Sequence record: MN895435.1
Source: Escherichia phage teqhal
DNA: 64,000 nt
Strand: one strand, 5' to 3'
Below, piece by piece: positions 20,401-57,900 of this stretch. Both the position numbers and the translations under genes were made by a program. The notes under the pieces were generated by a model that worked only from the letters and a program-made list of their open reading frames with translations, was not told the origin of the DNA and did not search any database. Position 1 is the stretch's first letter. The number at the start of each line of letters is the position of its first letter.

Positions 20401-20694
20401 ATGAAAAAATTTATCTTTGCTGCAATTTTTGCTTTATCTTCTTGCGCTGCTCAGCCTGCTATGGCGGGTTATGACAAAGATTTGTGCGAATGGTCTATGA
20501 CTGCAGATCAGACTGAAGTTGAAATTCAAATTGAAGCGGATATTATGAATATCGTTGAACGTGATCGTCCTGAAATGAAAGCTGAAGTGCAAAAACAACT
20601 TAAATCTGGTGGTGTAATGCAGTATAATTATGTTCTGTATTGCGATAAAAACTTTAATAATAAAAATATCATCGCTGAAGTGGTAGGTGAATAA
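20401..20694 (+). CDS. sp: periplasmic Spackle (Sp, 61.3)-like protein
   Basis: 97 aa, signal peptide MKKFIFAAIFALSSCAAQPAMA, T4 sp position and length. Confidence 0.6.
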   Translation: MKKFIFAAIFALSSCAAQPAMAGYDKDLCEWSMTADQTEVEIQIEADIMNIVERDRPEMKAEVQKQLKSGGVMQYNYVLYCDKNFNNKNIIAEVVGE

Positions 20695-21320
20695 TGCTCT
20701 ATCAAATGCACAAGTGCAAAGATACATACAAATATAAAGGTGCCCAGTGTTATATCATTAATCGTGAAAACGCGGGTCCAGGTCATTCGCATCAATCACG
20801 GTTTGTATTCGTTAAAAACAATGAAATTATAGCAGTTGCTAATTACATGCTTGTGATTAATGACGTTAATCCGGTGCCTTTTACATATTATAATCTAATG
20901 GATTTGGCGTACGATTATAATTGGTTTAATCATGACACTTTGGCTCATATCGAAGGCGTAGGATTTGACATCTCTTATTCTAGTTACTCGTTGTGTCCTA
21001 TGAGCCGAGCTCATAGAGAGCCTGAATATTTTTCATTTCGTCGGCGTGTAGACTTTAAACGCAGCACAGAGTATGTCGGTGGAATATTTGTTAAAGATAA
21101 TCGAATTACTCGCATTATTTATCCTTTGGGCTGTGGTCAAAAAGATATTGATGTTGATTTAGACTTTACTGAAAACATCATTAATCATATTGCTTCTGTG
21201 TATTTTGATATTGATCACAAAATTGTAATATGTGGATATGAATTACCGTTTGAAGAACAGCCTAAAGTAAAAGTTTCTATTGACGATCAAATTTTTAATG
21301 CTTTTATGAATAAAGGTTAA
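20694..21320 (+). CDS. hypothetical protein (61.2-like)
   Basis: 208 aa; C-terminus SIDDQIFNAFMNKG shared with next ORF. Confidence 0.5.
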   Translation: MLYQMHKCKDTYKYKGAQCYIINRENAGPGHSHQSRFVFVKNNEIIAVANYMLVINDVNPVPFTYYNLMDLAYDYNWFNHDTLAHIEGVGFDISYSSYSLCPMSRAHREPEYFSFRRRVDFKRSTEYVGGIFVKDNRITRIIYPLGCGQKDIDVDLDFTENIINHIASVYFDIDHKIVICGYELPFEEQPKVKVSIDDQIFNAFMNKG

Positions 21321-21321
21321 T

Positions 21322-21678
21322 ATGTATAGTTCTGAATTTTCATATTTAAAAATGGAAAAAATTTCATACGATTTTATAGATGAAAAGGTTTATTACAGTT
21401 TCCATGAACCGCGTTTTAATAGTGAGGTTGGGTTTATTGTAGTAAAAGACAATTTCATTTTAAAGATATATTCGGCATTAAAGGATTTTCACTACGAAAA
21501 TATTAACCTAAAATTTGATAAAGAAAACGTTCGTAATTGTGCAGTAACAATTACAGGAAATAAAGGTACATGTGTTATGCTATCTGATGAAATTAATGAT
21601 TTGCTAAATGATGCAGAAAATATTACTGCGCCATCTATTGATGACCAAATTTTTAATGCTTTTATGAATAGAGGTTAA
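21322..21678 (+). CDS. hypothetical protein (61.1-like)
   Basis: 118 aa; C-terminus SIDDQIFNAFMNRG shared with previous ORF. Confidence 0.5.
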   Translation: MYSSEFSYLKMEKISYDFIDEKVYYSFHEPRFNSEVGFIVVKDNFILKIYSALKDFHYENINLKFDKENVRNCAVTITGNKGTCVMLSDEINDLLNDAENITAPSIDDQIFNAFMNRG

Positions 21679-26493: not shown

Positions 26494-26518
26494 GCTTCTG
26501 AAGTATATGGAGGCTATC

Positions 26519-27142
26519 ATGATTATTAATCTCGCAGATGTTGAACAGTTATCTATAAAAGCTGAAAGTGTCGATTTTCAATATGATATGTACAAAAAGG
26601 TCTGTGAAAAATTTACTGACTTTGAACAGTCAGTTCTTTGGCAGTGTATGGAAGCCAAAAAGAATGAAGCTCTTCATCGGCAGTTGAATAAAATCGTTAA
26701 AAAGCATTTAACTAAATCGCCTTATCAGCTATATCGTGGTATATCAAAATCGACAAAAGAACTCATTAAAGATTTACAAGTTGGAGAAGTGTTTTCAACG
26801 AACAGAGTAGATTCATTTACTACTAGTTTGCACACAGCATGTGGTTTTTCTTATGTTGAGTATTTCACTGAAATAATATTTCGCTTAAAAACTGATAAAG
26901 CTTTTAATTATTCTGACCATATCAGCGATATTATACTTTCTTCTCCTAATACTGAATTTAAGTATACATATGAAGATACTGATGGATTAGATTCAGAACG
27001 TACTGATAACTTAATGATGATTGTACGTGAACAAGAATGGATGATTCCAATTGGAAAGTATAAAATAACTTCTATTTCAAAAGAAAAATTACACGATTCA
27101 TTTGGAACATTTAAAGTGTATGATATTGAGGTAGTTGAATGA
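26519..27142 (+). CDS. modB: ADP-ribosyltransferase ModB
   Basis: 207 aa from ATG 26519 with GGAGG RBS; R (LYRG), S-T-S (FSTNRVDSFTTS), E-x-E (REQEWMIP) motifs. Confidence 0.6.
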   Translation: MIINLADVEQLSIKAESVDFQYDMYKKVCEKFTDFEQSVLWQCMEAKKNEALHRQLNKIVKKHLTKSPYQLYRGISKSTKELIKDLQVGEVFSTNRVDSFTTSLHTACGFSYVEYFTEIIFRLKTDKAFNYSDHISDIILSSPNTEFKYTYEDTDGLDSERTDNLMMIVREQEWMIPIGKYKITSISKEKLHDSFGTFKVYDIEVVE

Positions 27143-27741
27143 AATATTCAGCAATGCAATTAAAAGATTTTAAAATCAAATCAATGGATGCATCTGTGCG
27201 TGCTTCTATTCGTGAAGAATTACTTTCCGAAGGATTTAATTTATCTGAAATTGAACTTTTAATTCATTGTATTACTAATAAACCAGACGATCATTCTTGG
27301 TTAAATGAAATAGTCAAATCTCGTTTGGTTCCAAACGATAAACCTCTTTGGAGAGGTGTTCCAGTTGAGACTAAACAGGTGTTAAATCAAGGAATTGATA
27401 TTATTACATTTGATAAAGTAGTATCAGCTTCATATGATAAAAATATAGCTCTACATTTTGCTTCTGGATTAGAATACAACACACAAGTTATTTTTGAATT
27501 CAAAGCTCCTATGGTGTTTAATTTCCAGGAGTATGCTATAAAAGCTTTACGTTGTAAAGAATATAGTCCGAGTTTTAAGTTTCCGGATAGCCATCGCTAT
27601 CGTAATATGGAATTAGTTTCAGATGAACAAGAAGTAATGATACCAGCTGGAAGTGTATTTAGAATTGCGGATAGATACGAGTATAAAAAGTATTCAACAT
27701 ACACTATCTATACTCTTGATTTTGAAGGATTTAATCTATAA
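27139..27741 (+). CDS. modA: ADP-ribosyltransferase ModA
   Basis: 200 aa; R (LWRG), S-x-S (VVSASYD), E-x-E (DEQEVMIP) motifs; paralogue of upstream gene. Confidence 0.6.
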   Translation: MKYSAMQLKDFKIKSMDASVRASIREELLSEGFNLSEIELLIHCITNKPDDHSWLNEIVKSRLVPNDKPLWRGVPVETKQVLNQGIDIITFDKVVSASYDKNIALHFASGLEYNTQVIFEFKAPMVFNFQEYAIKALRCKEYSPSFKFPDSHRYRNMELVSDEQEVMIPAGSVFRIADRYEYKKYSTYTIYTLDFEGFNL

Positions 27742-27857: not shown

Positions 27858-28604
27858 ATGAAACTGTCTAAAAATCAAATTCGTAAAATTACACGTCGTC
27901 TAGAGCACACTCAGGCATCTGCTAAAAGACGTTCTAAAGATTTTAACTTAGACTTCAATTACATTAAGAACATTTTAGATCAGAAAGTTTGCGCTTACTC
28001 AGGAGAACCTTTTGATAATCGTATTGAAGGAGAGAAATTATCATTAGAACGTTTTGATAATAACGTTGGATACATTAAAGGGAATGTTATTGCAGTAAAG
28101 AAAAAGTACAATACATTTCGTTCTGATTATACTTTAGAAGAGTTGATTGAAAAGCGTGATTTATTTGCTTTGCGAATTGGTCGTTCATCTGCGAAAAAAG
28201 TTCATAAACTAAATTTAGATGAAAAGAAATGGGCTAAAATCAAAAAGACTTATAATCAAATTAAAGCTATACAGAAAAAACGTGAAAACCGAATTGAACA
28301 CATTTCTCAGCTTTCTAAATCAAAACAAACTTCTGACGTTAAGCTAACGATTATAGCACTTAAAGCTCGTATTGATGGTTCTCGTATAGCAGAAGGCGCT
28401 GAAGTTGTTAAATTGAACGTTCTTCTTAAAGGCTCGGATTGGAAAACTGTGAAAAAGTTGTCAGAAGCAGAAATGCAATATGATATGTGTGATAAAATTA
28501 TTCAAGGTGTAGAGCGGTATCAAAACTTGTCTTTTATTGATAAACTTAAACTGAAAAGAGGATATCCGCTAAATTGTTCAATTTTTAAACTTATCCGAGG
28601 ATAA
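27858..28604 (+). CDS. Srd-like protein (tentative)
   Basis: 248 aa basic protein in the T4 srd position between modA and dda.1. Confidence 0.45.
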   Translation: MKLSKNQIRKITRRLEHTQASAKRRSKDFNLDFNYIKNILDQKVCAYSGEPFDNRIEGEKLSLERFDNNVGYIKGNVIAVKKKYNTFRSDYTLEELIEKRDLFALRIGRSSAKKVHKLNLDEKKWAKIKKTYNQIKAIQKKRENRIEHISQLSKSKQTSDVKLTIIALKARIDGSRIAEGAEVVKLNVLLKGSDWKTVKKLSEAEMQYDMCDKIIQGVERYQNLSFIDKLKLKRGYPLNCSIFKLIRG

Positions 28605-28605
28605 T

Positions 28606-28917
28606 ATGGTTTATGTATATGCGATAGTTTACCGAGACAAAGACGGATTTACGGCGCCAGTTCCGCTTGATGAACATCGTCCTGCTGTATTTTTTGAATG
28701 GAATATTGCTGACAAAGTATTTACCACTCTTAAAGAGCAGTATCAACTAGCTTTAGGCAAGGGAATTCCAAGATTAGTTGAGACTCCACGTAAATTTTGG
28801 TTTAATAAAATAGAAGTTAAACATGTTAAGCCTGATGTAGACACACAAAGATTATATCAGCGAATTTTAGATACTGGGCGTATTGTTAGTATACCAATTG
28901 CAGGGAATTTACGATGA
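28606..28917 (+). CDS. hypothetical protein (dda.1-like)
   Basis: 103 aa ORF immediately upstream of dda. Confidence 0.45.
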   Translation: MVYVYAIVYRDKDGFTAPVPLDEHRPAVFFEWNIADKVFTTLKEQYQLALGKGIPRLVETPRKFWFNKIEVKHVKPDVDTQRLYQRILDTGRIVSIPIAGNLR

Positions 28918-30233
28918 CATTTGATGATTTGACCGAAGGCCAGAAAAATGCCTTTAACATTGTTATGAAGGCTATTAAAGAAAAGAAACATCATGTAACT
29001 ATTAATGGACCTGCTGGTACTGGTAAGACTACTCTTACCAAATTCATCATTGAAGCTTTAATATCTACGGGTGAAACTGGTATTATTTTAGCAGCTCCTA
29101 CTCATGCAGCTAAAAAGATTCTTTCAAAACTATCAGGGAAAGAAGCGAGTACTATTCACAGCATTCTTAAAATTAACCCAGTAACATATGAAGAAAACGT
29201 TCTTTTTGAACAAAAAGAAGTACCAGATTTAGCTAAATGCAGGGTATTAATCTGCGACGAAGTGTCAATGTATGATAGAAAGCTCTTCAAAATTTTGCTT
29301 TCAACTATTCCACCTTGGTGTACTATAATTGGAATAGGTGATAATAAGCAAATTAGACCTGTTGATCCAGGAGAAAATACTGCTTATATCAGTCCATTCT
29401 TTACACACAAAGATTTTTATCAGTGTGAACTTACTGAAGTTAAACGCAGTAATGCTCCTATTATTGATGTAGCTACTGATGTTCGCAACGGTAAGTGGAT
29501 TTATGATAAAGTTGTTGACGGTCATGGAGTACGTGGATTTACTGGTGATACCGCTTTACGCGATTTTATGGTAAATTATTTTTCAATCGTCAAATCACTA
29601 GATGATTTGTTTGAAAATCGCGTAATGGCATTTACGAATAAATCCGTTGACAAGTTAAATAGCATTATTCGTAAAAAGATTTTTGAAACTGATAAAGATT
29701 TTATTGTTGGTGAAATTATTGTAATGCAGGAACCATTAATTAAAACATATAAAATTGATGGAAAGCCTGTATCAGAAATTATTTTTAATAATGGACAATT
29801 AGTTCGTATTATAGAAGCAGAGTATACATCGACGTTTGTTAAAGCTCGTGGTGTTCCTGGAGAATACTTAATTCGTCATTGGGATTTAACAGTAGAAACT
29901 TACGGCGATGATGAATATTATCGTGAAAAGATTAAAATAATTTCATCTGATGAAGAGCTATATAAGTTTAACCTATTTTTAGGTAAAACGGCAGAAACTT
30001 ATAAAAATTGGAACAAAGGCGGAAAAGCTCCGTGGAGTGATTTTTGGGATGCTAAATCACAGTTTAGTAAAGTGAAAGCACTTCCTGCATCAACATTCCA
30101 TAAAGCGCAGGGTATGTCTGTAGACCGTGCTTTCATTTATACGCCTTGTATTCATTATGCAGATGCTGAATTAGCTCAGCAGCTTCTTTATGTTGGTGTC
30201 ACTCGTGGTCGTTATGATGTGTTTTATGTGTGA
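28914..30233 (+). CDS. dda: DNA helicase Dda (SF1B)
   Basis: 439 aa, Walker A GPAGTGKTT, T4 Dda length. Confidence 0.9.
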   Translation: MTFDDLTEGQKNAFNIVMKAIKEKKHHVTINGPAGTGKTTLTKFIIEALISTGETGIILAAPTHAAKKILSKLSGKEASTIHSILKINPVTYEENVLFEQKEVPDLAKCRVLICDEVSMYDRKLFKILLSTIPPWCTIIGIGDNKQIRPVDPGENTAYISPFFTHKDFYQCELTEVKRSNAPIIDVATDVRNGKWIYDKVVDGHGVRGFTGDTALRDFMVNYFSIVKSLDDLFENRVMAFTNKSVDKLNSIIRKKIFETDKDFIVGEIIVMQEPLIKTYKIDGKPVSEIIFNNGQLVRIIEAEYTSTFVKARGVPGEYLIRHWDLTVETYGDDEYYREKIKIISSDEELYKFNLFLGKTAETYKNWNKGGKAPWSDFWDAKSQFSKVKALPASTFHKAQGMSVDRAFIYTPCIHYADAELAQQLLYVGVTRGRYDVFYV

Positions 30234-30239
30234 GGATAT

Positions 30240-30500
30240 ATGATTAACATCAATTCAAAATATTTAAATCGTCTAATAGATGGTATAAGGAAGCATACTA
30301 ATAAGCAAGATAATCTTAATGTTATGGTAACAGGAGCTGAGCTCCTTCATAAGCTTTATCTTATAAGTGATACTATATTAGCAATTAAACGAATTGAAAA
30401 ACAATCATATCACAGTAATACAGATACGGTAATTACACTAGATGAAAGTGTCTGTAAATTACTAATTAAATTTGAGGAAGCTATTCGTGGAAATAACTAA
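30240..30500 (+). CDS. hypothetical protein (dexA.2-like)
   Basis: 86 aa ORF. Confidence 0.45.
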   Translation: MININSKYLNRLIDGIRKHTNKQDNLNVMVTGAELLHKLYLISDTILAIKRIEKQSYHSNTDTVITLDESVCKLLIKFEEAIRGNN

Positions 30501-30732
30501 AGATCAGTTTTATCTTCTTCAGGATAAAGTTAGCGAAATTTATGAAATTGCTCATGGTAAAAATCGTGAAACTGTAAAAATTGAATCTAGTAAGTTGATG
30601 CTTCAATTAGAAGAAATTGAACGAGATTTAATTGCGTTAGAATTCTTTTGCGGTGAAGTGAAAACTGTTACAATTAATGATTATGTTTTAGGCGAAATTA
30701 GCTATCTTTATGAGGCGATTATTAATGATTGA
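30487..30732 (+). CDS. hypothetical protein, tandem paralogue A
   Basis: 81 aa from GTG with GAGGAAG RBS (track ORF 30472..30732); shares the LEEI motif with the next ORF. Confidence 0.4.
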   Translation: MEITKDQFYLLQDKVSEIYEIAHGKNRETVKIESSKLMLQLEEIERDLIALEFFCGEVKTVTINDYVLGEISYLYEAIIND

Positions 30733-30967
30733 ATTAAGTTGGTACCAATTTAAATCTCTTATGACAAATGTTAAAGCTGTCATTGAAGAAAATCAGGGTC
30801 CTGAAAATATTACTATTCGCGAAAAAGCTTTAAAGATAGTATACAGTCTTGAAGAAATACAAAAAGACATTGAATCTATGGCAAAATTTATTGATGAGCC
30901 TATCAATAAAGTTTATATTCAAGACTATACTGTAGGTCAAATTCGTGATTTAGCGAGGAAAATTTAA
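30725..30967 (+). CDS. hypothetical protein, tandem paralogue B
   Basis: 80 aa from ATG 30725 (track ORF 30710..30967); similar spacing of conserved residues to previous ORF. Confidence 0.4.
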   Translation: MIELSWYQFKSLMTNVKAVIEENQGPENITIREKALKIVYSLEEIQKDIESMAKFIDEPINKVYIQDYTVGQIRDLARKI

Positions 30968-31650
30968 TGTTTGATTTTATTATAGATTTTGAAACAATGG
31001 GAAGCGGTGAAAAAGCAGCTGTTATTGATTTGGCTGTAATTGCTTTTGACCCTAACCCAGAAGTAGTTGAAACATTTGATGAATTAGTTTCACGTGGCAT
31101 TAAAATCAAATTTGATTTAAAAAGCCAAAAAGGACATCGTCTTTTTACTAAAAGCACTATCGAATGGTGGAAGAATCAATCCCCTGAAGCTCGAAAAAAT
31201 ATTGCACCATCAGATGAAGATGTAAGCACTATCGATGGTATTGTAAAATTTAATGATTACATCAATGCGCATAATATCGATCCTTGGAAATCTCAAGGCT
31301 GGTGCCGTGGAATGTCGTTTGATTTTCCAATTTTAGTCGATCTCATTCGTGATATTCAACGCCTTAATGGTGTATCTGAGAATGAGCTTGACACATTTAA
31401 GTTAGAACCGTGTAAATTCTGGAATCAGCGTGATATTCGTACCAGAATTGAAGCACTTCTACTTGTTCGTGATATGACCACATGTCCTCTTCCAAAGGGA
31501 ACTTTAGATGGATTCGTTGCACATGATTCTATTCATGACTGTGCGAAAGACATCCTGATGATGAAGTATGCTTTGCGATACGCTATGGGTCTTGAAGATG
31601 CTCCGTCAGAGGAAGAGTGCGATCCTCTGTCTCTTCCAACAAAACGATAA
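30967..31650 (+). CDS. dexA: exonuclease A DexA (DEDD family)
   Basis: 227 aa, FDFIIDFETMG exonuclease motif, T4 DexA length. Confidence 0.85.
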   Translation: MFDFIIDFETMGSGEKAAVIDLAVIAFDPNPEVVETFDELVSRGIKIKFDLKSQKGHRLFTKSTIEWWKNQSPEARKNIAPSDEDVSTIDGIVKFNDYINAHNIDPWKSQGWCRGMSFDFPILVDLIRDIQRLNGVSENELDTFKLEPCKFWNQRDIRTRIEALLLVRDMTTCPLPKGTLDGFVAHDSIHDCAKDILMMKYALRYAMGLEDAPSEEECDPLSLPTKR

Positions 31651-31656
31651 AAAGTT

Positions 31657-31687
31657 GTTTACTTCCTCGGTTAGTTGTGGTATTATA
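31657..31687 (+). promoter_or_regulatory. T4-type early promoter
   Basis: TGTTTACTTCCTCGGTTAGTTGTGGTATTATAA. Confidence 0.5.
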
Positions 31688-31713
31688 ACACTATAGCTAC
31701 TGAGGATAATAAA

Positions 31714-32226
31714 ATGAAAATTTATCGTGTTGAATCATCGTTTAGCGCATTAAATGATGATAGTGGTATAATGAAAATTAGGCAAGAGTTATGTGTTCAA
31801 TCAACTCCTTATCGTGGATTTGATTCTATGAAAACTCGAACTTGGCTAAAATTTTGCGGTATTAATTCATCATCATTTCATCATCATAGCAATGATTATG
31901 AAAGTCATGAAAGTATTCCTATTCCACACGATGATAAGTTATTAGTTGAAAATGCTAATGATGCTATTAAAACTAAATGGAATAAAGATTATTCACGAAT
32001 TGAAAATTATATTCCATTGTGGTTTATTGCATTATATCATTTTGCTTTCGCTAGTGAATATGATATAATGAGATGGTTTACTCGAGAAGAGCGTGAAGAC
32101 TTAAAAGATCGTGGAATGTACATTGCGATTTATGAAGTGCCAGATGATCAAGTTATCATTGGTGGGCATCAAGTAATGTTTCGCAAATCGCATGCCGAAT
32201 TAAAAGGCTTTATTACCTTAGATTAA
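31714..32226 (+). CDS. hypothetical protein (MotB-like by position, tentative)
   Basis: 170 aa from ATG 31714 with GAGGA RBS (track ORF 31675..32226). Confidence 0.4.
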   Translation: MKIYRVESSFSALNDDSGIMKIRQELCVQSTPYRGFDSMKTRTWLKFCGINSSSFHHHSNDYESHESIPIPHDDKLLVENANDAIKTKWNKDYSRIENYIPLWFIALYHFAFASEYDIMRWFTREEREDLKDRGMYIAIYEVPDDQVIIGGHQVMFRKSHAELKGFITLD

Positions 32227-32235
32227 AGGAAAATT

Positions 32236-32736
32236 ATGATTAAAATTAATACTACGTATCAAATGAAAAAACCATCTGAAATTGATTTCCAGACAATGTC
32301 GAATACGACTGATAGCAAGTTTTGGGAACTTCTTGGTACAACTGGCGGATATCCTTTTACTGTTATTAGTGTTAATAGCGGAATTCTCATTGGTACAGTG
32401 TACATGGAAATTAGAAACTATTATGGAAGGGTATCATCATTCATCATCTATGAAGAAGATTTCAATTTATTGACAGAAATTGAAAAAGAAGAACAAGAAA
32501 AATCCCATATTGATATGGATTTAGTTTCTATGTATGTAACACCAGTTGAAAAAATTGAAGACCCGACTGATTTGTTGTGTAAGGCAGTTTATATTCGTCG
32601 TCCATTCGCGAATCCGATTGGCGGTTGGGTAACTGATCAGTGGATTGAAGATGGTGTTGAACTTCTGAACGTAGTTCATGCTGGAGAGTACTCTGTAGTT
32701 CCTCGCAGCGCAGTGATTAATGTTCGTGTAAGCTAG
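32236..32736 (+). CDS. hypothetical protein, paralogue pair member 1
   Basis: 166 aa; C-terminal WVTDQWIEDGVELLNVVHAGEYSVVP resembles next ORF. Confidence 0.5.
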   Translation: MIKINTTYQMKKPSEIDFQTMSNTTDSKFWELLGTTGGYPFTVISVNSGILIGTVYMEIRNYYGRVSSFIIYEEDFNLLTEIEKEEQEKSHIDMDLVSMYVTPVEKIEDPTDLLCKAVYIRRPFANPIGGWVTDQWIEDGVELLNVVHAGEYSVVPRSAVINVRVS

Positions 32737-32765
32737 TTTACAAACTCTTGGGACCAGAGTATAAT
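32736..32765 (+). promoter_or_regulatory. T4-type early promoter
   Basis: AGTTTACAAACTCTTGGGACCAGAGTATAATGG. Confidence 0.5.
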
Positions 32766-32809
32766 GGTCCTGCGGAGTATAAAATCTTTTTAACAAGTGA
32801 GAGATAATT

Positions 32810-33301
32810 ATGAATATTAATATCGGTGAAATTGCTCGTGTATCTGATAAATCCCGTTCTAAGGCAGCAGGAAAATTGGTTGAAGTTGTAAGCATTCAGC
32901 TTAAACATGGCGTTAAAGATGAAGATTCTGAAGTAAAAGTGCGTATCATTCCTAAAGATGGAATGTCTAAACCTCAGTTTGGTTATGTTCGATGGAAATT
33001 TCTTGAGCCTGCGTTTTTGAAAGCTGTTCCCGCTAAAGGAATTGAAACGATTGATACTTCGCATGTAGGTGTAGACTTTAAGTGGAAACTCGGTCAAGCT
33101 ATCAAGTTCGTTGCTCCTTATGAGTTTGAATTTACTGAAGGTGAGGAAGGTGTTGTTAACCGTACTCGCGCTATGTGTGCATACATTACCGATCAATGGG
33201 TAGAAGACGGTGTTAAGTTGTACAACACGGTATTTTTAGGAACATACAAAGTCATTCCTGAAAGCTGGATTAAACACTATAGCAAAGCTCGTTATGCATA
33301 A
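32810..33301 (+). CDS. hypothetical protein, paralogue pair member 2
   Basis: 163 aa; C-terminal YITDQWVEDGVKLYNTVFLGTYKVIP resembles previous ORF. Confidence 0.5.
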   Translation: MNINIGEIARVSDKSRSKAAGKLVEVVSIQLKHGVKDEDSEVKVRIIPKDGMSKPQFGYVRWKFLEPAFLKAVPAKGIETIDTSHVGVDFKWKLGQAIKFVAPYEFEFTEGEEGVVNRTRAMCAYITDQWVEDGVKLYNTVFLGTYKVIPESWIKHYSKARYA

Positions 33302-33334
33302 AGTTTAAAATTTTTTCATAAAACTATATACATC

Positions 33335-33360
33335 AGTAGTTGATTATGGTACTATATCAA
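33335..33360 (+). promoter_or_regulatory. T4-type early promoter with conserved leader
   Basis: A/T-rich UP region, TTGATTATGGTACTATATC, then conserved CAACTACTGATAC leader. Confidence 0.4.
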
Positions 33361-33398
33361 TATCAACTACTGATACAGAAAACAACTTGGAGAATAAA

Positions 33399-33668
33399 AT
33401 GGAAAACTTAATTATCATCGAGCAATCTTTCAACGATTATGGTATGGCTTATGGTTATCGTGCGATAATGGAAGATTCTCGTGGATGTGTTATCGATATT
33501 GCTGAATGTAAAGATTTACTGCAGCTTTTGAAGATTGTTCGCAAAAATTGGGATTGTGAAAACATTAAAGCTCGTGTTGTAACGGAAGAAGAAACTGTTT
33601 TTCATGATGTAAAATTTGCCAAAGATGCTGCTACTCTTCTGAAACGCATCGCTCCACTGTTCAATTAA
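33399..33668 (+). CDS. hypothetical protein
   Basis: 89 aa from ATG 33399 (track ORF begins at upstream TTG). Confidence 0.45.
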   Translation: MENLIIIEQSFNDYGMAYGYRAIMEDSRGCVIDIAECKDLLQLLKIVRKNWDCENIKARVVTEEETVFHDVKFAKDAATLLKRIAPLFN

Positions 33669-33681
33669 TGAGGAAATTGTA

Positions 33682-33897
33682 ATGAAACGTAAAATTGTTC
33701 AGAATTGCACTAATGACGAATTTGAAGATGTATTATTCGATCCAGATTTGGTAGTAGTTCAAAAGGAACACACCATCAAGTTTACTCACTTGACTTCGGT
33801 TTATGTGTATGAAAAGGTTGGTGATAAACAACCGATTTATGGTGTATTCCGTGAAATCACTGAAGACGGTACAACTTACTGGAAGGAAATTTATTAA
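33682..33897 (+). CDS. hypothetical protein
   Basis: 71 aa ORF. Confidence 0.45.
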
Positions 33898-34316
33898 TGG
33901 CTATTAAATTTGAAGTTAATAAATGGTATCAATTTAAAAATAAACAAGCTCAAGAAGCTTTTATTAAAGACCATACTGAAAACGGAATTTATGCACGACG
34001 TTTAGGTATGGAACCTTTTAAAGTTATAGATATTGACTATCTTGGTCGTCCTACTAAAATTATGTCATCTACTGGAAGATTGGCATTATCCTCCGGTAAA
34101 GATATTTTGGATGAAGATTTTATTTGGCTTTCTACTAGCGAAGCTGAATTCTTTGATGAAGTGGAAAATCCATACCAGGCAGCTGAAGAGCAAGAGCAGG
34201 AAGAGAAAGAGCAAATAGAAGATTTCACAGAATTCCCAATCATGAAAGTTACTATTGAAAATAATGAACAGGCATGGTCCTTGTATCAGATGTTGAAAGC
34301 TCACTTTAAGGAATAA
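33897..34316 (+). CDS. hypothetical acidic protein
   Basis: 139 aa with Glu/Gln-rich segment. Confidence 0.45.
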
Positions 34317-34318
34317 TT

Positions 34319-34495
34319 ATGCCAATGTATGATTATAAATGCCAATCCGAAGATTGCGGGCATGAATATGAAAAAATTAAAAAGATTTCTGAACGAGAAA
34401 ATGATGTTTGCCCTAAATGTCATCGTTTGTCTACTCGTCGGCCTTCTGCTCCTAAGCATGTGAATGGTGGTTTTTACGACTTACTTAAAGGGTAA
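34319..34495 (+). CDS. small zinc-ribbon protein (CxxC ... CxxC, FmdB-like)
   Basis: 58 aa MPMYDYKCQSEDCGHEYEKIKKISERENDVCPKCHR; absent from ORF track (under 60 aa). Confidence 0.5.
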   Translation: MPMYDYKCQSEDCGHEYEKIKKISERENDVCPKCHRLSTRRPSAPKHVNGGFYDLLKG

Positions 34496-34497
34496 TT

Positions 34498-34869
34498 ATG
34501 TTTAAAATCGGTAAGAAATATTGCATTCGTGAAGGTGAAGAACAGAAATATCTACTTTCTGCTAGTAATAGGAATAGTTCTATTAATGCTGTAATATCTA
34601 CAAGCGAATTTATCGTTGAAGATATGAAAGGTAATAATGTCACAATGATTAGTACAGCATCTGGAAATGATGGAAAAATTCTTCACAGTTTTCAGAGTAA
34701 TGTTCTAATTTATGATGAAGAATTTGACCTATTCGAAGAAGTTACAGAAGATTTTGATTTTGAATGCACTATCACTATGAAATCTGGCGATCCTCTTTCT
34801 TTTACAGTTAAAGATGAAAGAAGCCGCTTGAGAGTTATTAGTCTTCTTCAAGCCATTAAATTTAAGTGA
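34498..34869 (+). CDS. hypothetical protein
   Basis: 123 aa ORF. Confidence 0.45.
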   Translation: MFKIGKKYCIREGEEQKYLLSASNRNSSINAVISTSEFIVEDMKGNNVTMISTASGNDGKILHSFQSNVLIYDEEFDLFEEVTEDFDFECTITMKSGDPLSFTVKDERSRLRVISLLQAIKFK

Positions 34870-35135
34870 AAATTATGAAATATATTAATCGTTCTATCGC
34901 AGCATTAGTATTAGCAGTGTCTTTAGTAGGATGTACTGATGCTGATAATGCAACTAAAGTTTTGTCTTCAAGTGGTTTTACTAATATTGAAATCACTGGA
35001 TATAACTGGTTCGGTTGCTCTGAAAATGATTTCCAACATACTGGATTTCGTGCTATTGGACCTACCGGGCAGAAAGTAGAAGGAACAGTATGTTCTGGGC
35101 TGTTCTTTAAGGATTCAACTATTCGTTTTAAATAA
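34866..35135 (+). CDS. putative lipoprotein
   Basis: 89 aa, signal peptide and lipobox LVGC. Confidence 0.5.
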   Translation: MKIMKYINRSIAALVLAVSLVGCTDADNATKVLSSSGFTNIEITGYNWFGCSENDFQHTGFRAIGPTGQKVEGTVCSGLFFKDSTIRFK

Positions 35136-35158
35136 AAGGCCTTCGGGCCTTTAGCTTT
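35136..35158 (+). terminator. UUCG-loop hairpin AAAGGCCTTCGGGCCTTT
   Basis: palindrome immediately after lipoprotein gene. Confidence 0.55.
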
Positions 35159-35204
35159 ATGATTACCGGAGTATAATATTCCCGAAACCAAACGAGGATA
35201 AGTG

Positions 35205-49258: not shown

Positions 49259-52200
49259 TTACATAAGTTTAGATTCAAGTTCTTTTACACGAGAAGAAAG
49301 CGTTTTCACAGCTTCAACCAGAAGAGCAATCTGGGCTTGAGAAGAAACAGTGAGTATTTTATTACCCTTGCTGTCTTCTGTTTCACGGACGGCTTCTGGT
49401 AAAACGTCTTGTAACGTTTGAGCTACAATACCCGCTTCAGTTTCAATTGCCTCTCCACCGATGTATTCAGCTTTATCATAAATGACACCATTGAGTTTTT
49501 CAACTTTATCAAGTGCATTTTCGATAGGTTTGAAATTAGATTTTAAGCGAATATCAGAACGAATATAAACGTTTGGAGCATTTATATTTTTATATGAGTA
49601 CAAATCACCGTTTTGGAAACGGAATACTTGTACGCTGTTCGCATATATGTCTAATAATCCATCGCCATTTTGCTTAATACCAGTATCGCTATCACCAAAT
49701 GCTATACTATTTCCACCAAGTGCGTTATTGATATTAATACCAAATGAATTCATTTGGTTAACACCAGCTACAGTAGCATTATTTACTACAAAGCGGTTAG
49801 CTCCACCTGGAGCTTTTTCAAAGTAAGCAATATAGTTAGTTTCATCGGCAATTTCAATACGGTTACCACGAGAAGCATCGCCAGCATGAAATATTCTCAT
49901 ATTTCTTGGGTTAGCACCAGACTTATCAAAGTTAATAGAACCATTATCTTTGACATTTATGCTATTATAGAATAAAGCAGCACTGCGAACAGCTATGCCG
50001 TTATTCATTAATACTTCACCGGTTGTTAAGTTAATTGCGAAAGGACGCTTACTATTCCAATCACCGTTAACAGTTGCTTCGCCATCGGTGGCATTTTTAT
50101 CTGTAAACAGAATATAAAAACTACTGCCATCATTTCGTAGCATTGTAGCAACAGAACCAGTTTTATCGCTGTTGCTTCTAATACGAATACCAGTTTGGTT
50201 ATTAATAGCTATTTCAGAATCGGCTTCATAACGCTTAACTTTGCCGCGATCAACCAAGTTATTAAGAACATTAGCAACTTGCCCATCAACTGCTGTATCT
50301 GGAAGAGCATCCACAGGTGATTGGGTAGATGAGTTAATACCAATAACGCTAACAGTAGCATTTTCGGTACATGACCATTCACAAGTTAATTGATTGCAAT
50401 ATGTTCCGGCATAAACATAAATGTCATATGTATCTCCAGAGACGTTATTAACTGCAATATTTTTAAATGCAGCTGCAATTGTTCTTGTGTATAATACAGC
50501 ATTTAAGTCAGCAGGTCTTTCATTACTAGTACGTAAAACAATTTCAGCAATATTGCATTGTGTGAATAATCCACTATTAAATCCAGAACCACCGGCTATT
50601 TTAAAGAAGACCGTAGAAGTGGATTGTGGCATTGTTACTGTTGCAAACTTATACCATCCAGCAGTTGCTCCATAAGTAATAAATCCAGAATTAACTTTAC
50701 GATTTAGCGTGGTGTTTAAGTTAGCAAAGTTTCCTGAACCGCTAGTAATATTACCATCAGTTCCTAGTTGGGCATTTCCGACTTTAAGAGGTTTACTGAT
50801 TGACACGAAATTATCGCTTATAACAAGACCGTGTCCATAAGATTGACTATAAAGCGATAAATCACTTCCAGCGCCACCAAGACCAACATACCACGATCTA
50901 GTTCCAGCTTTAGAACCCTGCAAATAATTAGCAGAAGAAGATGAAGGAGAATCTAGAGTAAGCGCTGCATTACGTTCATTAATAGTTACTGGACATATCA
51001 TTTTAATAGTTTTAAGACTATTACTTACTTGTAATAATCCTGTACCAGATCCAGAATCTCCTAAATGAACATCATGCGACATTTTAACTGTGCCGGTGTT
51101 CAGTTCTATTATCAATGGTCTAAGATTACTTATACCGCCAGATTCTCCAGCATCTTTAGGAGTCGGGATAATATAAAGATTTCTTTCTGAGCGACGGAAA
51201 ATAGCACCATATTCGGCATTCCAAATTCTTAATGCATCAGCAGTTCCGCCGATTTTAACTTGTCCAGTAATAGAAGAACCACCTTGGACAAACAAACCAT
51301 TAGACATGGTAACATTACCGACTAAAGTGCTTAATCCATTAACTTTAAAACTTCCGTCAGTAATAATACTTCCTCTAGCATTAACAGCTCCAGCAAACTG
51401 GGTTACAACAGGACCAGTAGTTTCTGAGCCGCTTGGGGCTACACGCTGGGAATAAAAATAATAACCTTGTCCGTCAGCTACTTCAAAAACTGTTTCACGA
51501 TTACGATCGCCAGATGCGTTAAATGAATTACCCCACGCTTTAACAGTTACATAGCTTTTATTCTGACCAGCACGAGTACCGCCTTCCCACAAAATTTGCT
51601 TAGTGCCATCAATTGTAGTAGTTGGAGCGAATGTTAGCCCAGCAGTAGAATTATTAGCTGCTAAATATATGCCGTTATATATTGAAAGCTGCTTAACAGA
51701 TGTAATACCGCCATCAGCATAAAACATTACATTATTAGAGCCAGTTACCAATTTCAAAATACCTGGGTTAACTTCCATGCCTTCTTGAGTATTAATATTA
51801 GTTTTTCCTTTACCACGGAAATAGTGGTTCATTTTACCGCCAGAGTTATATCCAATGTGGGTTTGACCATCTCCAGCAGAGTTTTCATCAGCCTGTGTTT
51901 GAACCGATAAAAAAGCAGCGTTCGTTCCAGGCATAATCCATGTTCCGCCTTGGTCTTCTGAACGTCCAAATAATGCTTTACGAGTACTACGGAAACTGTC
52001 AGGAGTAATAGACGCGATAGAAAGACCATTAGCAACTAAATCATATACACCAGATCTTTTATATGATACACCAGTTGCGGCATCTCCAATGACTATATAG
52101 CATTCACCCATTGCTCCAGTGGAGCCGTAATTATTAATGTTTTCATCTGTTGTAATTGTACCAATTGCGAGTGAGCGTCGCAACACTAAAGACCCATCAT

Positions 52201-53041
52201 TGCGAAGGCCCATTTGTTTATTAACGGCTGTATTACCGGTCCACCAAGACAGTTCATCACTTTTTCCGGTTTGTGCAGAAGCTAATTCATGATAAATCGT
52301 ACCACCAGATTTTGCACGGAATTTACGAAGGTAATTAATTCCGTTTGTTTCACCAGTTCCAGGATAAACATATTGAACTAATGACTGCGAATCGTATTGT
52401 CCAAACGCTTTCGTATCAAATGAAATATTTTTAGTTACAACAGATGGACCAATCAAAGAACCTGTTCTTGTTTCAATATTACTCTGAGCGACTAAATACC
52501 CACCAGATACTAATAAATTACCAGAATCAACTTGAAAATTACCTGAGCGCGCAAATGTCCAATATTTAGATTGACCAGTTTCATCAATATAATGAATCTT
52601 CAACGAACCTTCAGAAACTAAAGTACCTAATGAAAAAGTTCCATCTTTAAAGCGCTGTTTAATTATAGGATTATATTCAGATGTGGAAGTAGCTGAGCTT
52701 AAATCTACAAAAATTGGAGCCTTTGCAGTGTGTTGACCGGACCAAGCCCCACTTCCAGTAGTACGATAATTAAACTCAATATATCCACCACTTGCTATAA
52801 TCTGCGGGCCAATTAAATTAAATTTTCCAGTCTGTGTATAATCACCAGTTTGAGTGATATTACCACTGATATTACCGCCAGCGGTAATGCTTAAGTCAAT
52901 GATATTTCCTGAATCGTCTTTAGTAAAAATTGTTCTATCTTTTAAGTTTATAGCCAATTCACCTTCGGCTAATACTGAAGCAGCAGGACGTTGACCTGCA
53001 GTTTTGCTTCTTTTAAATTGTATTTGTTTTAAAGTAGCCAT
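49259..53041 (-). CDS. 37: long tail fibre distal subunit gp37
   Basis: 1260 aa; Gly/Ser/Thr/Asn-rich fibre sequence; C-terminus SDIRLKSNFKPIENALDKVEKLNGVIYD resembles an intramolecular chaperone (S74-like) module. Confidence 0.85.
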   Translation of the reverse strand: MATLKQIQFKRSKTAGQRPAASVLAEGELAINLKDRTIFTKDDSGNIIDLSITAGGNISGNITQTGDYTQTGKFNLIGPQIIASGGYIEFNYRTTGSGAWSGQHTAKAPIFVDLSSATSTSEYNPIIKQRFKDGTFSLGTLVSEGSLKIHYIDETGQSKYWTFARSGNFQVDSGNLLVSGGYLVAQSNIETRTGSLIGPSVVTKNISFDTKAFGQYDSQSLVQYVYPGTGETNGINYLRKFRAKSGGTIYHELASAQTGKSDELSWWTGNTAVNKQMGLRNDGSLVLRRSLAIGTITTDENINNYGSTGAMGECYIVIGDAATGVSYKRSGVYDLVANGLSIASITPDSFRSTRKALFGRSEDQGGTWIMPGTNAAFLSVQTQADENSAGDGQTHIGYNSGGKMNHYFRGKGKTNINTQEGMEVNPGILKLVTGSNNVMFYADGGITSVKQLSIYNGIYLAANNSTAGLTFAPTTTIDGTKQILWEGGTRAGQNKSYVTVKAWGNSFNASGDRNRETVFEVADGQGYYFYSQRVAPSGSETTGPVVTQFAGAVNARGSIITDGSFKVNGLSTLVGNVTMSNGLFVQGGSSITGQVKIGGTADALRIWNAEYGAIFRRSERNLYIIPTPKDAGESGGISNLRPLIIELNTGTVKMSHDVHLGDSGSGTGLLQVSNSLKTIKMICPVTINERNAALTLDSPSSSSANYLQGSKAGTRSWYVGLGGAGSDLSLYSQSYGHGLVISDNFVSISKPLKVGNAQLGTDGNITSGSGNFANLNTTLNRKVNSGFITYGATAGWYKFATVTMPQSTSTVFFKIAGGSGFNSGLFTQCNIAEIVLRTSNERPADLNAVLYTRTIAAAFKNIAVNNVSGDTYDIYVYAGTYCNQLTCEWSCTENATVSVIGINSSTQSPVDALPDTAVDGQVANVLNNLVDRGKVKRYEADSEIAINNQTGIRIRSNSDKTGSVATMLRNDGSSFYILFTDKNATDGEATVNGDWNSKRPFAINLTTGEVLMNNGIAVRSAALFYNSINVKDNGSINFDKSGANPRNMRIFHAGDASRGNRIEIADETNYIAYFEKAPGGANRFVVNNATVAGVNQMNSFGININNALGGNSIAFGDSDTGIKQNGDGLLDIYANSVQVFRFQNGDLYSYKNINAPNVYIRSDIRLKSNFKPIENALDKVEKLNGVIYDKAEYIGGEAIETEAGIVAQTLQDVLPEAVRETEDSKGNKILTVSSQAQIALLVEAVKTLSSRVKELESKLM

Positions 53042-54901: not shown

Positions 54902-57900
54902 TTATTCAACCCATTCAAATTTAACAGTTTTATTCACTGGGTCAGGAATAATGCGAACATTACCAATTCGTAAGAAATCACGAATAGTAAGATTCCCCAT
55001 TGTAGCATTATCAGATGGTAAAGCACCGATATCAGACGGCTGAGGAGGGTTACCTCCGTCAAATACCTGAACAAAACTTGACCAAGAGTTTTTGGTTTTC
55101 TGCCATGTACGTGTCCAGCGAGTGGTACGCGCTTCTGGTGTCGTTGGATAAGTAATCCAATCTTGGTAAAGCGAATCAAGTGTGTTACCAAACTGTGTCA
55201 GTGTACCAGGAGATTTAACTTCTTCGCCACGTTCTAAGTATGGAAGTCCAGTCACTTCATTAGTTTTTTCAACCATTTTAAAATAACCTGGGAACTGGTT
55301 ATAAGTGGCTGAATCGTTAATATCGATTGACCAGAATCCTACCGTATCAGATGTTGGCGCACGGGTATATAAATCAGATGTTTTAGTACCCTGAGAACGA
55401 ATTCTCGAGTTAACAGTTAAACCGCCTGAATTTATAGTAGCACCTTTGGCAATGATTAAGCTTTCACCAATTGTGACTTGACCGGATTGATTATTAATTG
55501 ATAATGGACGTAATCCATTAAATCCACCGGTCTGATCACCAGATGCAGTAAGCATAAAATATGTGCTGCCGCCATCATTCCTGATAAAGAATCCATAATC
55601 ACCGTTTATTGCTCTGAAAGCATTTGCAGACTTGCTAATGAATTCACCATTGGCTGTAACTGAACTACCAAATGTTGCTACGCCATTCGCATTCAATGAA
55701 CCGGAAGCGTTAACATTTATTGGCATCACAGTACCATTAATGCTAAACGTAATATTACCAGCTTTATTACGTTGAGAATAAAAGTGATTAGATGTTTCAT
55801 CACCAACTTCAAATACAGTAGAACGCGTTGTATCTGATCCGCCACTAAACTGATTTCCCCAAACTCTGATAGTCATCGTCTGTGCTGGGTTAGTTCCAGT
55901 TTGAGGTCCTTTCTCAAAAATCAGACGAGTTGCTGTTCCAGTATTAGAAATAGTTAATGTACTATTTGCCGAAACTGAACCACCAAACGTAGCAGTACTA
56001 GATGATACAAGAGGGGCACTCAGATTCGTTTGTTGGGTTAAGGTTAGTGAACCATTAACCGTCTGTGCAATATCCCTACGAATGAACTGAGATGAATCTA
56101 GACCATCCAATAAATTACTATCTGCAGCTTTTGCTTTTAACGGTAAATAATTTGCTAATACACGGTTTAATTCATATGGTGATATTGCATAGCTATTTTT
56201 CTCATACAGTTCTAAATCTTGGGTAGAACCGACTGTATCATTACCAACGAACGTAATTGAACCAGATGAAGTTTTAACAAAACCTCTTACCGCAGTAGTA
56301 GCTGCCCAGGTAGGTTCACTCTGCACAATCCATTTTAAATTTTTTGGAGATACAGCAGTATTTGCTGATGCTCCAGTCACAGTTTCAGACTGAGTTGCAA
56401 CTTTAATAACACCTTCCTGTGATTCGGTAGATTTAGTACTTAAAAGCTTTTTAGGAGTTATTAAAACATTATCTAATGTTCCTGTAGCAGCTTCAACTTG
56501 TGTAGCTACACGAAGTGTACCACGTTGCGTCTCATTTGCTTCAAGAATATTAAGGGTATAATGGTCCCAGAGAGTTCCTGATTCAACTAATCCAGATAGA
56601 GCAACAACAGAAGTACGATCAGTACTATTAAATCTGGTTTTAATTTTTAATGGTGTAGAGATACGAGTATCGTCGACGCCTGCGTCGAATTCAACTTGTG
56701 TAGCAATTTCAGCTATACCACTTAAACTTTCAGTTGCTCTACGGTCATTTAAAGTTTTAGGAGTGACTGCACGAGTATAATCAGTTCCTGTATTAACTTC
56801 ACTTTGCGTAGCAATTTCAATTAAACCAATTCTTCCATCAGTTGATGTCTTTTTATGTAACGTTTCTGGCGTTACAACAGCATTTGCCCATCCTTCTTGA
56901 CTCTGTCCAGCAATTACTTCACTTTCAACTGCTAAAATTACTGCACCTTGTTGCGTTGGAGTAGCTTTATACTGATCCAAAGCTTTAGGTGAAACAACTA
57001 AATTATTAGTGTTTTTATTATAAACGTTTGTACCATTTAATTCACGACTAGAAGCTGGAGTAGCGCCTGCGGTAGATACAAAAGTTACAATACCAGATAA
57101 TGATTCAGAACCTTGACGAGCTTGAAGCTTTTTAGGAGTGATGATTGTAGTATCATCGGTTCCTGCATTAGTTTCTTGCTGCGTAGCAATTTCAGCAACA
57201 CCTCTGCGAGTTTCTGTAGCAGTTCTTTCATTCAGCTTTTTAGGAGTAATGATAAGGTCATCTGCAAAAGAGAATGTGGTGTTCTGATTCACTTGAGCAG
57301 TAGTTGCTATTCTTGCAATACCTCTGCGAGTTTCTGTAGCAGTACGGTTAGCTAATGTTTCTGGAGTAATTGCTAATTCTTTTTGTGGAGAATTTTCTAA
57401 ATCGACATTAGCTTGAGCTTGTGTAGCTAAAGCAATTACGCCTAATCTTGCTCTAGTAGAATCATTCAAAGAGTCTACTCTTTCTACGGTTGGAACGTTT
57501 TGTTGTACAACCCAGTATTTTCCATCAGAATCTTCTATATAAGCAAGTTGTAAAACTGGAACATAATTAGTTTCACCGTTAAAAACTAATTCTTGAACAG
57601 TTACCCATTCAGCTTCAGGCGGATATTCTGAACGTTTTGGGAATTGCAGCAATTGAACTGAAGAAGCAATTTTATCTTCACCGGCAGCTTTGATTTTAAC
57701 TGTTTGTCCTTTTCTCATGTAATTCATGGAAATTTTAACAGTATCACCAACAGAAATATTAGTTGGAAGCTGAAGCTCAATTGTTTGAGTTGTTCCGTTA
57801 TTCGCACCAAATACCATAACTTCTTCGTTTGGACGAATATTAGAATTAGTCGTTATAATGCGTAAACGTGCTTTACTATCCCCGTCAAACAATCTCCACA

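Follow-up and report, generated by a model that had tools for sequence, protein, structure and literature searches.

Several small neighbouring genes of Escherichia phage teqhal (sequence record MN895435.1) resemble one another in pairs, and the question they raise is whether each pair arose by local duplication and, if so, whether whole genes or single domains were copied. We addressed it in a 64,000-nucleotide stretch of this record (hereafter the window), within an interval of 3062 bases (30240-33301) behind the helicase gene dda. The interval shares 98.6% identity with Escherichia phage vB-Eco-KMB22 and 98% with both wV7 and AR1, and matches 583 phage records, nearly all of them Tequatrovirus; we assign the window to Tequatrovirus, AR1/wV7 type, in an orientation that is the reverse complement of the T4 map. 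Our reading, to which we give a probability of roughly 60%, is that two unrelated sets of paralogues are present, one between dda and the exonuclease gene dexA and one formed by motB.1 and motB, and that they result from local duplication of genes or domains, together with loss, in a plastic and dispensable early/middle region of T4-type genomes. The four open reading frames (ORFs) that the initial annotation had paired are dexA.2, dexA.1, motB.1 and motB, and its coordinates for them are correct; gene names here are assigned from the AR1 and T4 annotations together with the ORF list (pI, isoelectric point).

28914..30233, plus strand: dda, helicase gene; marks the upstream end of the first family's slot; 98.6% identical to T4 Dda
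30240..30500, plus strand: ORF X (AR1_017), 86 residues, pI 8.8; no T4 counterpart
30487..30732, plus strand: dexA.2, 81 residues, pI 4.4, GTG start; 96% identical to T4 DexA.2
30725..30967, plus strand: dexA.1, 80 residues, pI 5.1; 95% identical to T4 DexA.1
30967..31650, plus strand: dexA, gene of exonuclease A; marks the downstream end of the slot; 99.6% identical to T4 DexA
32236..32736, plus strand: motB.1, 166 residues; 82% identical to T4
32810..33301, plus strand: motB, DNA-binding early protein, 163 residues, pI 9.0; 88% identical to T4 MotB

Formal alignment confirmed that the similarity within each pair is real. DexA.2 and DexA.1 align by BLASTP over their full length with one gap and 24 of 79 residues identical (30%, E = 4e-9), and their Smith-Waterman score of 93 was not approached by any of 2000 composition-preserving shuffles (mean 27.7, maximum 53, z = 13). 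The motifs from which a tandem pair had been proposed, QF..L, LEEI..D and DY..G.I, are the invariant columns of this alignment. MotB.1 and MotB share 16 of 29 residues (55%, E = 1e-9) between positions 130-158 and 124-152, respectively, with a Smith-Waterman z of 14 that was likewise reached in 0 of 2000 shuffles.

For the second pair, the proposed C-terminal (V/I)TDQW module is genuine, but a duplication of the whole gene does not follow from it, as the N-termini differ. The Pfam model of MotB, PF17613, covers MotB completely (321.6 bits, profile positions 1-162 of 162, cut-off 25), and matches MotB.1 with 33.4 bits only at residues 121-160, against profile positions 114-153, rather than over its full length; PHROG 1671 (MotB) matches MotB.1 at residues 79-162 (E = 1.6e-15). 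Since only this C-terminal domain, modelled below as a barrel, is common to the two proteins, the paralogy is one of domains, and came about either by gene duplication with domain replacement or by shuffling. A barrel transferred between unrelated genes, instead of whole-gene duplication followed by replacement of the N-terminus, is a serious contender, though we lean slightly away from it. The domain is the sole part held in common, it is found behind at least three N-terminal arrangements (one GoF-like domain, two GoF-like domains, and a KOW-like one in the Klebsiella phage protein P0088), and the GoF-type N-domain also stands alone in goF and in the ORF at 34498; against this, many genomes have motB.1 and motB side by side in the same orientation, and both scenarios lead to the same end state, so that sequence cannot separate them. 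Chance resemblance of short ORFs rich in lysine, isoleucine, asparagine and glutamate, which the 29-39% G+C of the region might invite, deserves next to no weight, since neither score was reached by the shuffles (z = 13-14) and independent profile libraries connect the same pairs.

Part of this is already on record. The relationship of motB.1 and motB was published in 2021 and 2025, and databases already treat dexA.2 and dexA.1 as one family, as PHROG 1700, a model of 160 positions, is filled by dexA.2 at 1-80 and by dexA.1 at 80-159, and Pfam PF26837.1 is the precomputed label of all 104 retrieved homologues of DexA.1/DexA.2. The labelled proteins include homologues of DexA.2 and homologues 88-96% identical to the DexA.1 of the window, some of them at 95-96%, and it is through these labels that we read the membership of both genes. 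A literature search found no description of the paralogy, the copy-number series or the function of the DexA.1/DexA.2 family. What is new here is a divergent third copy, a series of zero to three copies with a deletion scar in T4, estimates of selection, and a fold model; for motB.1 and motB the additions are smaller, namely an SH3-like C-terminal domain, a split in charge, and an extra GoF paralogue, AR1_005.

The gene family between dda and dexA

The tandem duplication proposed for dexA.2 and dexA.1 held, and the case is stronger than was claimed, with three copies in the window, variation from zero to three copies among phages, and members found in this slot only among 67 dexA loci. The third copy is ORF X, and profile and structure comparisons show it to be homologous to dexA.2 and dexA.1. 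A single profile of 77 positions, phrog_5263, matches ORF X (1.4e-5), dexA.2 (1.7e-7) and dexA.1 (4.8e-3), and the family profile that we built with jackhmmer from 65 dexA loci scored ORF X at E = 1e-5 before its inclusion. Aligned by hhalign to a family alignment built without it, ORF X scored 38.3 (probability 93.7%, E = 1.9e-7, residues 1-82 against 1-80), compared with a maximum of 16.9 in 60 column shuffles and with 22.4 for the next best non-member among 98 small window ORFs. In addition, the AlphaFold2 model of DexA.1 superposes with a template-modelling (TM) score of 0.82 on the BFVD model of an 86-residue protein of Shigella phage Sf25, which is probably the ORF X of that phage, as Sf25 carries an ORF X 88% identical to that of the window.

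Several observations count against so close a grouping. BLASTP gives no alignment of ORF X with dexA.2 or dexA.1 and the shuffle z is 1-2; four ORF X homologues carry no precomputed Pfam domain, PF26837 included; and ORF X is placed in a separate group, PHROG 4967, so that its tie to the family is made at the level of profiles and structure only, on the profile side through phrog_5263 and the profile-profile comparison. ORF X is best described as a distant relative of the family, outside PF26837 as that family is defined.

The distribution of the family was determined with 65 dexA loci taken from IMG/VR with dexA as anchor, and the search covered 2076 plus-strand ORFs of 67 loci. The jackhmmer search converged on 59 proteins in 43 loci, and all 59 lie between dda and dexA on the same strand, with the last copies ending at or just upstream of dexA; at these 67 loci the family is therefore confined to the dda-dexA slot. 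A comparison across T4-like genera gave the following series of copy numbers.

No copy: Mosigvirus phiE142/Shf125875, where dda ends 18 nucleotides before dexA with no small ORF (phiE142-type junction at locus positions 4482-4501; 154 similar records)
One copy: Dhakavirus QL01 and about 30 other loci
Two copies: T4, Pectobacterium phage PM2, Yersinia phage TG1, Erwinia phage Cronus
Three copies: this window, AR1, ime09

ORF X occurs in 308 phage records, with identities of 88% or more throughout. An exhaustive search of 1.84 billion representatives with a DexA.1/DexA.2 profile returned only nine proteins, all from close T4-type relatives, this profile being too narrow to reach other genera in a database of that size; judged by sequence, the family is tiny.

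In a neighbour-joining tree the family separates into two deep types, of which phage TG1 has one each, while PM2, Cronus and Tequatrovirus bear lineage-specific duplicates. The dexA.2 proteins are sister to a group of dexA.1 and the Dhakavirus type. ORF X is on a long branch and is sister to neither dexA.1 nor dexA.2, a placement that weighs against local copying as its source, and its duplication in situ is for this reason not proven. Some copies, ORF X above all, could instead have entered the slot by homologous recombination with T4-like phages, leaving a mosaic array. The long branch, the two deep types in TG1 and the mosaic character of the downstream region, where motB.2 and motB.1 are 65% and 82% identical to T4 and dexA 99.6%, would agree with such an origin; we nevertheless consider it improbable, as a single clade unites dexA.2, dexA.1 and the single-copy type of Dhakavirus, ORF X has no close relative outside Tequatrovirus among its 308 matches, and either route needs an earlier duplication within this slot. 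We also considered the Dhakavirus gene as a recombinant of dexA.2 and dexA.1, because its N-terminus (TKDQFY) is that of dexA.2, and dropped the idea when the dexA.2-like residues proved to be scattered; they would fit retained ancestral states. A junction motif, GAGG...ATT, was likewise rejected as a duplication scar, since it precedes each gene and is indistinguishable from an ordinary Shine-Dalgarno requirement.

The local duplication and loss that we favour are best documented in T4, which has no ORF X but keeps its last 24 nucleotides (ATTAAATTTGAGGAAGCTATTC together with the region of the GTG start) as the spacer between dda and dexA.2 (window 30464..30487, NC_000866 5890-5915), including the GAGGAA ribosome site of dexA.2. 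In ORF X the retained nucleotides encode part of the homologous C-terminal helix, which makes deletion in the T4 lineage more parsimonious than gain here, and the two-copy state of T4 would have arisen in this way. In ime09 (NC_019503, 2961-3440, minus strand) dexA.2 and dexA.1 form one in-frame ORF of 159 residues, owing to a one-base difference within their 8-nucleotide overlap, which could be natural or a sequencing error; a fusion of this type explains the 160 positions of PHROG 1700.

The small genes are under purifying selection. The ratios of non-synonymous to synonymous substitution (dN/dS; Nei-Gojobori, eight Tequatrovirus sequences) are 0.21 for ORF X, 0.15 for dexA.2 and 0.11 for dexA.1, which indicates that all three encode functional proteins; the flanking enzymes, by the same method, gave 0.023 (dda) and 0.015 (dexA). 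The constraint on the slot genes is estimated to be roughly ten-fold weaker than on these enzymes, and their non-synonymous change is 5-14 times faster. Between genera the slot proteins are at most 45% identical, or escape BLASTP altogether, whereas Dda and DexA remain at 60-70%. The initial annotation had taken the duplicated genes for rapidly evolving host-interaction genes; the fast divergence is borne out, whereas an interaction with the host is documented for MotB only.

The three genes are also tightly packed. ORF X and dexA.2 overlap by 14 nucleotides, dexA.2 and dexA.1 by 8 (ATGATTGA), and dexA.1 and dexA by 1 (TAATG). GAGG lies ahead of every gene start within the last codons of the preceding gene, as GAGGA upstream of the ATG of ORF X and embedded at the dexA junction, and T4 dexA.2 has the identical GTG start and GAGGAA Shine-Dalgarno sequence. 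The overlapping stops and starts with embedded GAGG sites indicate coupled translation. Transcription of dda.1, dda, dexA.2 and dexA.1 begins at one common start upstream of dda.1 (bioRxiv 10.1101/2024.04.04.588121), and in a scan of 28400-35300 we found no promoter-like consensus between dda and dexA comparable to the site in the motB.1-motB spacer (see below). Mass spectrometry of T4 infection detected DexA.2 with cGAS attached to Lys5 (PMC10097602), a position that agrees with the GTG start and the N-terminus M-E-I-T-K. The annotation of these genes is uneven. AR1 lists only a 44-residue internal ATG fragment of dexA.2, because the GTG start was overlooked, and RefSeq labels the 81-residue DexA.2 'dextranase', with many records calling it 'exonuclease'; it has no enzyme domain, and these names are propagated annotation errors.

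Domain architecture of MotB.1 and MotB

Four segments of motB.1 and motB are distinguished.

32236..32490, plus strand: motB.1 N-terminal domain, residues 1-85, GoF-like small beta-barrel
32482..32547, plus strand: linker insert, MotB.1 residues 83-104 (22 residues, EKEEQEKSHIDMDLVSMYVTPV), which the common 144-residue MotB.1 forms do not have
32560..32733, plus strand: motB.1 C-terminal domain, residues 109-166, the module held in common with MotB
33086..33298, plus strand: motB C-terminal module, about residues 93-163

Residues D134, Q135 and W136 of the C-terminal domain of MotB.1 are invariant over 16 diverse homologues, and AlphaFold2 predicts this domain as a five-stranded barrel (residues 117-162). 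When the two-domain model was compared with the PDB by Foldseek, the best matches were the tandem Tudor domain of 53BP1 and the KOW proteins Spt5, NusG and eS4 (E from 6.5e-4), and the common C-terminal domain looks SH3-like, of the Tudor/KOW type, rather than like an oligonucleotide/oligosaccharide-binding (OB) fold. Two points speak against this assignment: the TM scores are low (0.28-0.39), because two flexibly linked domains are compared at once, and a paper based on HHpred called the MotB C-terminal domain an OB-fold (PMC7827196). The same paper (Patterson-West et al. 2021) reported the common domain of the adjacent MotB and MotB.1 and suggested a duplication, as we do; in contrast to that work, the MotB.1 modelled here is the full-length protein of 166 residues, it carries the 22-residue linker insert, and its five-stranded barrel is SH3-like.

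T4 MotB binds DNA tightly and non-specifically and co-purifies with H-NS/StpA (PMC6070864, PMC7827196). The calculated pI is 4.75 for the C-terminal domain of MotB.1, 6.8 for that of MotB, and 9.5 for the N-terminal and middle part of MotB. With an acidic-to-neutral shared barrel and a basic remainder, DNA binding is more likely to reside in the N-terminal/middle part of MotB, and the barrel would more likely be a common module for partner binding or oligomerisation; as an argument from charge this is indirect, and it weakens the assignment accordingly. The two proteins would then carry one common C-terminal barrel on different N-terminal modules, GoF-type in MotB.1 and basic and KOW-like in MotB. 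The spacer between the genes contains, at 32737..32765 on the plus strand, the sequence TTTACA-17-TATAAT, which with 11 of 12 positions is the best sigma-70-like consensus in 28400-35300, and motB may have an early promoter of its own at this site.

The N-terminal domain of MotB.1 leads to a further set of paralogues, which includes two of the other genes in and around the interval.

27858..28604: srd
28606..28917: dda.1
31714..32226: motB.2, 65% identical to T4
33387..33668: AR1_010
33682..33897: cef
33897..34316, plus strand: goF, 139 residues; its N-terminal domain has paralogues in ORF 34498 and in the N-domain of MotB.1
34319..34495: 39.2
34498..34869, plus strand: AR1_005 (ORF 34498), 123 residues; additional GoF paralogue
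34866..35135: 39.1
from 35202: gene 39

Phrog_622, the GoF family, matches goF (1.2e-39), ORF 34498 (8.4e-29) and residues 1-103 of MotB.1 (2.2e-4). The MotB.1 profile, phrog_2333, matches ORF 34498 in turn (E = 4e-4), and a jackhmmer search started from ORF 34498 recruits residues 1-85 of MotB.1. The AlphaFold2 model of this domain is a barrel with the family's bent, antiparallel sheet of five strands (7-10, 41-48, 54-60, 66-72, 79-82) at a predicted local distance difference test score (pLDDT) of 77-87. By hhalign, ORF 34498 matches GoF with a probability of 98.9% and MotB.1 with 61%, and the direct match of MotB.1 to GoF is weak (3%), so that the link rests on the bridge through ORF 34498 and on the published comparison of structures, in which GoF and MotB.1, along with Frd.2, have an N-terminal LSm-like fold (Kim et al. 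2025, PMC12152347). Binding of RNA, or an influence on its stability, has been shown only for the GoF(D25Y) mutant, and MotB.1 had no effect in the reporter assay (PMC12152347). Our profile searches recover the same kinship of small beta-barrels through PHROG 622 and jackhmmer and add one member to it: ORF 34498 has no match in T4, and AR1_005 is by these comparisons an extra GoF paralogue that T4 does not have.

The linker of MotB.1 is predicted to be disordered at residues 96-107 (pLDDT below 50), a stretch that takes in part of the 22-residue insert. The motif D-x-D-[ILV]-x-[SC]-x-Y-x-x-P of the insert is also found at the N-terminus of 180-residue MotB.1-like proteins and in the RB68-type linker, and may be a short linear binding motif.

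Two window-wide comparisons put these sets in context. All-against-all BLASTP of 143 window ORFs, which used ATG starts only and so did not include the GTG-started dexA.2, returned just four paralogue pairs. Besides motB.1/motB, these are a modA/modB-like pair (26507..27142 and 27139..27741, 27% identity, E = 3e-14), the pair 20694..21320 and 21322..21678 (34% identity), and two large ORFs on the minus strand, 49259..53041 and 54902..58771 (31% identity across 179 residues). An all-against-all hhalign comparison of 14 interval genes gave no paralogy outside the three sets reported here; its scores for motB.1/motB and dexA.2/dexA.1 are inflated, because the jackhmmer alignments of each pair have sequences in common. 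T4 early genes include other tandem paralogue pairs, modA/modB for example, in the 'plastic periphery' of T4-like genomes. Both mod genes are in the window and, like the slot genes, they are adjacent, co-oriented and diverged duplicates in a dispensable early region. They differ in being ADP-ribosyltransferases of known chemistry, whereas in the DexA.1 family we recognise no catalytic motif, and no relative of it has been solved.

The motB.1 reading frame in the T4 reference

The motB.1 ORF of the T4 reference genome (NC_000866, 3792-4151, minus strand) has 119 codons and ends within the conserved TDQWIEDGV motif. An extra G (ATT-G-GAA) shifts the frame at this point, and the rest of the domain can be read in the next frame. 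A query of 131 bases spanning the site finds complete identity (100%) in AF158101.6 and NC_000866.4 alone; in 13 other T4-type records 130 bases align at 99.2%, which corresponds to a one-base gap, the extra G being absent.

Records without the extra G: T4T, KJ477684-6, MT984581, OZ209023, OZ209057, MZ375356, OL964735, OL964745, OZ035787, RB55, RB59

MT984581 and T4T annotate a MotB.1 of 143 residues with a complete C-terminal domain, and by comparison the ORF of the T4 reference seems to have been truncated by one additional base. The 2025 study of MotB.1 worked with the 119-residue reference protein: it quotes 13.8 kDa, the mass of that form, obtained most constructs by gene synthesis, and cites NC_000866.4 coordinates for its amber-mutant plasmids (PMC12152347). 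Its pBAD33-motB.1 expression construct probably follows the reference ORF as well, and the MotB.1 model and the negative reporter result may concern a truncated protein from which half of the conserved C-terminal domain is gone. This by-product of the analysis is its most immediate practical use.

Possible role of the DexA.1 family

The AlphaFold2 model of DexA.1 has high confidence (pLDDT 95.1, predicted TM score 0.81) and consists of a single domain of about 80 residues, with strand b1 (2-5), helices a1 (6-22) and a2 (26-56), strand b2 (62-65) and helix a3 (67-79) in the order beta-alpha-alpha-beta-alpha. Its matches in BFVD are the DexA.2-like protein BECP11 (TM 0.85) and the slot proteins of CC31, CF1 and Cronus (TM 0.80-0.85). 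The same fold was met there only in uncharacterised proteins of T4-like phages (Straboviridae), often two per phage, with Enterobacteria, Erwinia, Yersinia, Acinetobacter and Aeromonas as hosts. In the family alignment conservation falls mainly on hydrophobic, glycine and proline positions, which would form the core or turns, and the remaining positions would be variable; this pattern points to small, non-enzymatic binding modules.

What these modules bind is a separate matter. We are highly confident of the evolutionary description of the family; a role in binding host components is a tentative proposal that we regard as doubtful. On the evolutionary description, ORF X, dexA.2 and dexA.1 form a birth-and-death array in which each gene, about 80 codons long, encodes one compact beta-alpha-alpha-beta-alpha domain; stop and start codons overlap from one gene to the next, with embedded GAGG ribosome sites, and the chain runs into dexA. 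On the proposal of host binding, the conserved core would carry a fast-changing surface, directed most likely at host proteins, or else serving as an optional modulator of phage nucleic-acid enzymes. Database comparisons lend this proposal no support. The best Foldseek match of the DexA.1 model in the PDB has an E of 1.4 and is helical-hairpin noise; searching PDB sequences with a profile yielded coiled-coil and cGAS matches with E no better than 0.007, which we judged spurious; searches of NCBIfam, PADLOC and a Pfam copy without PF26837 returned nothing meaningful for ORF X, dexA.2 or dexA.1; and we found no experiment or characterised homologue that bears on the function of the family. The fixed position and the translational coupling to dexA, moreover, would fit a DexA-linked role too.

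Such a role, in which the DexA exonuclease (or the Dda helicase) has the family members as its dedicated accessory subunits or regulators, made in fixed proportion to it, would account for the confinement of all detected members to the slot, for a last copy whose end is only a few bases from the dexA start, with the TAATG overlap and its embedded GAGGA, and for co-transcription with dda. It is hard to reconcile, in contrast, with the large Mosigvirus clade, which keeps dda and dexA intact, 18 nucleotides apart in 154 similar records, with no copy at all and so makes an obligate subunit of DexA or Dda unlikely. The variation from zero to three copies, identities between genera of 25-45% compared with 60-70% for DexA, and a dN/dS about ten times that of DexA also speak against it, and we regard this role as unlikely, more so than binding to host components.

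More speculative still, and in our view quite improbable, is that DexA.2 and DexA.1 form a heteromer of a new small fold, with ORF X as a third or alternative partner, that binds a host nuclease or immune sensor. The in-frame fusion of ime09 hints at such a pairing. If it were true, the series of zero to three copies would record an arms race, and the conjugate of cGAS, from a cyclic-oligonucleotide-based anti-phage signalling system (CBASS), on Lys5 of DexA.2 would reflect physical nearness to a defence system and not mere abundance.

On the reading of local duplication and loss, the locus is otherwise ordinary, in that duplication, loss and the reshuffling of domains shape the dexA-39 region, as specialists would expect. 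The DexA.1 family is an accessible test case, with a compact and confidently modelled domain, no solved relative, and expression in T4 infection, and natural variants with zero, one, two and three copies, as well as a fusion, are on hand for comparison. It offers a convenient way to approach the early genes of T4-like phages, many of which are unassigned.

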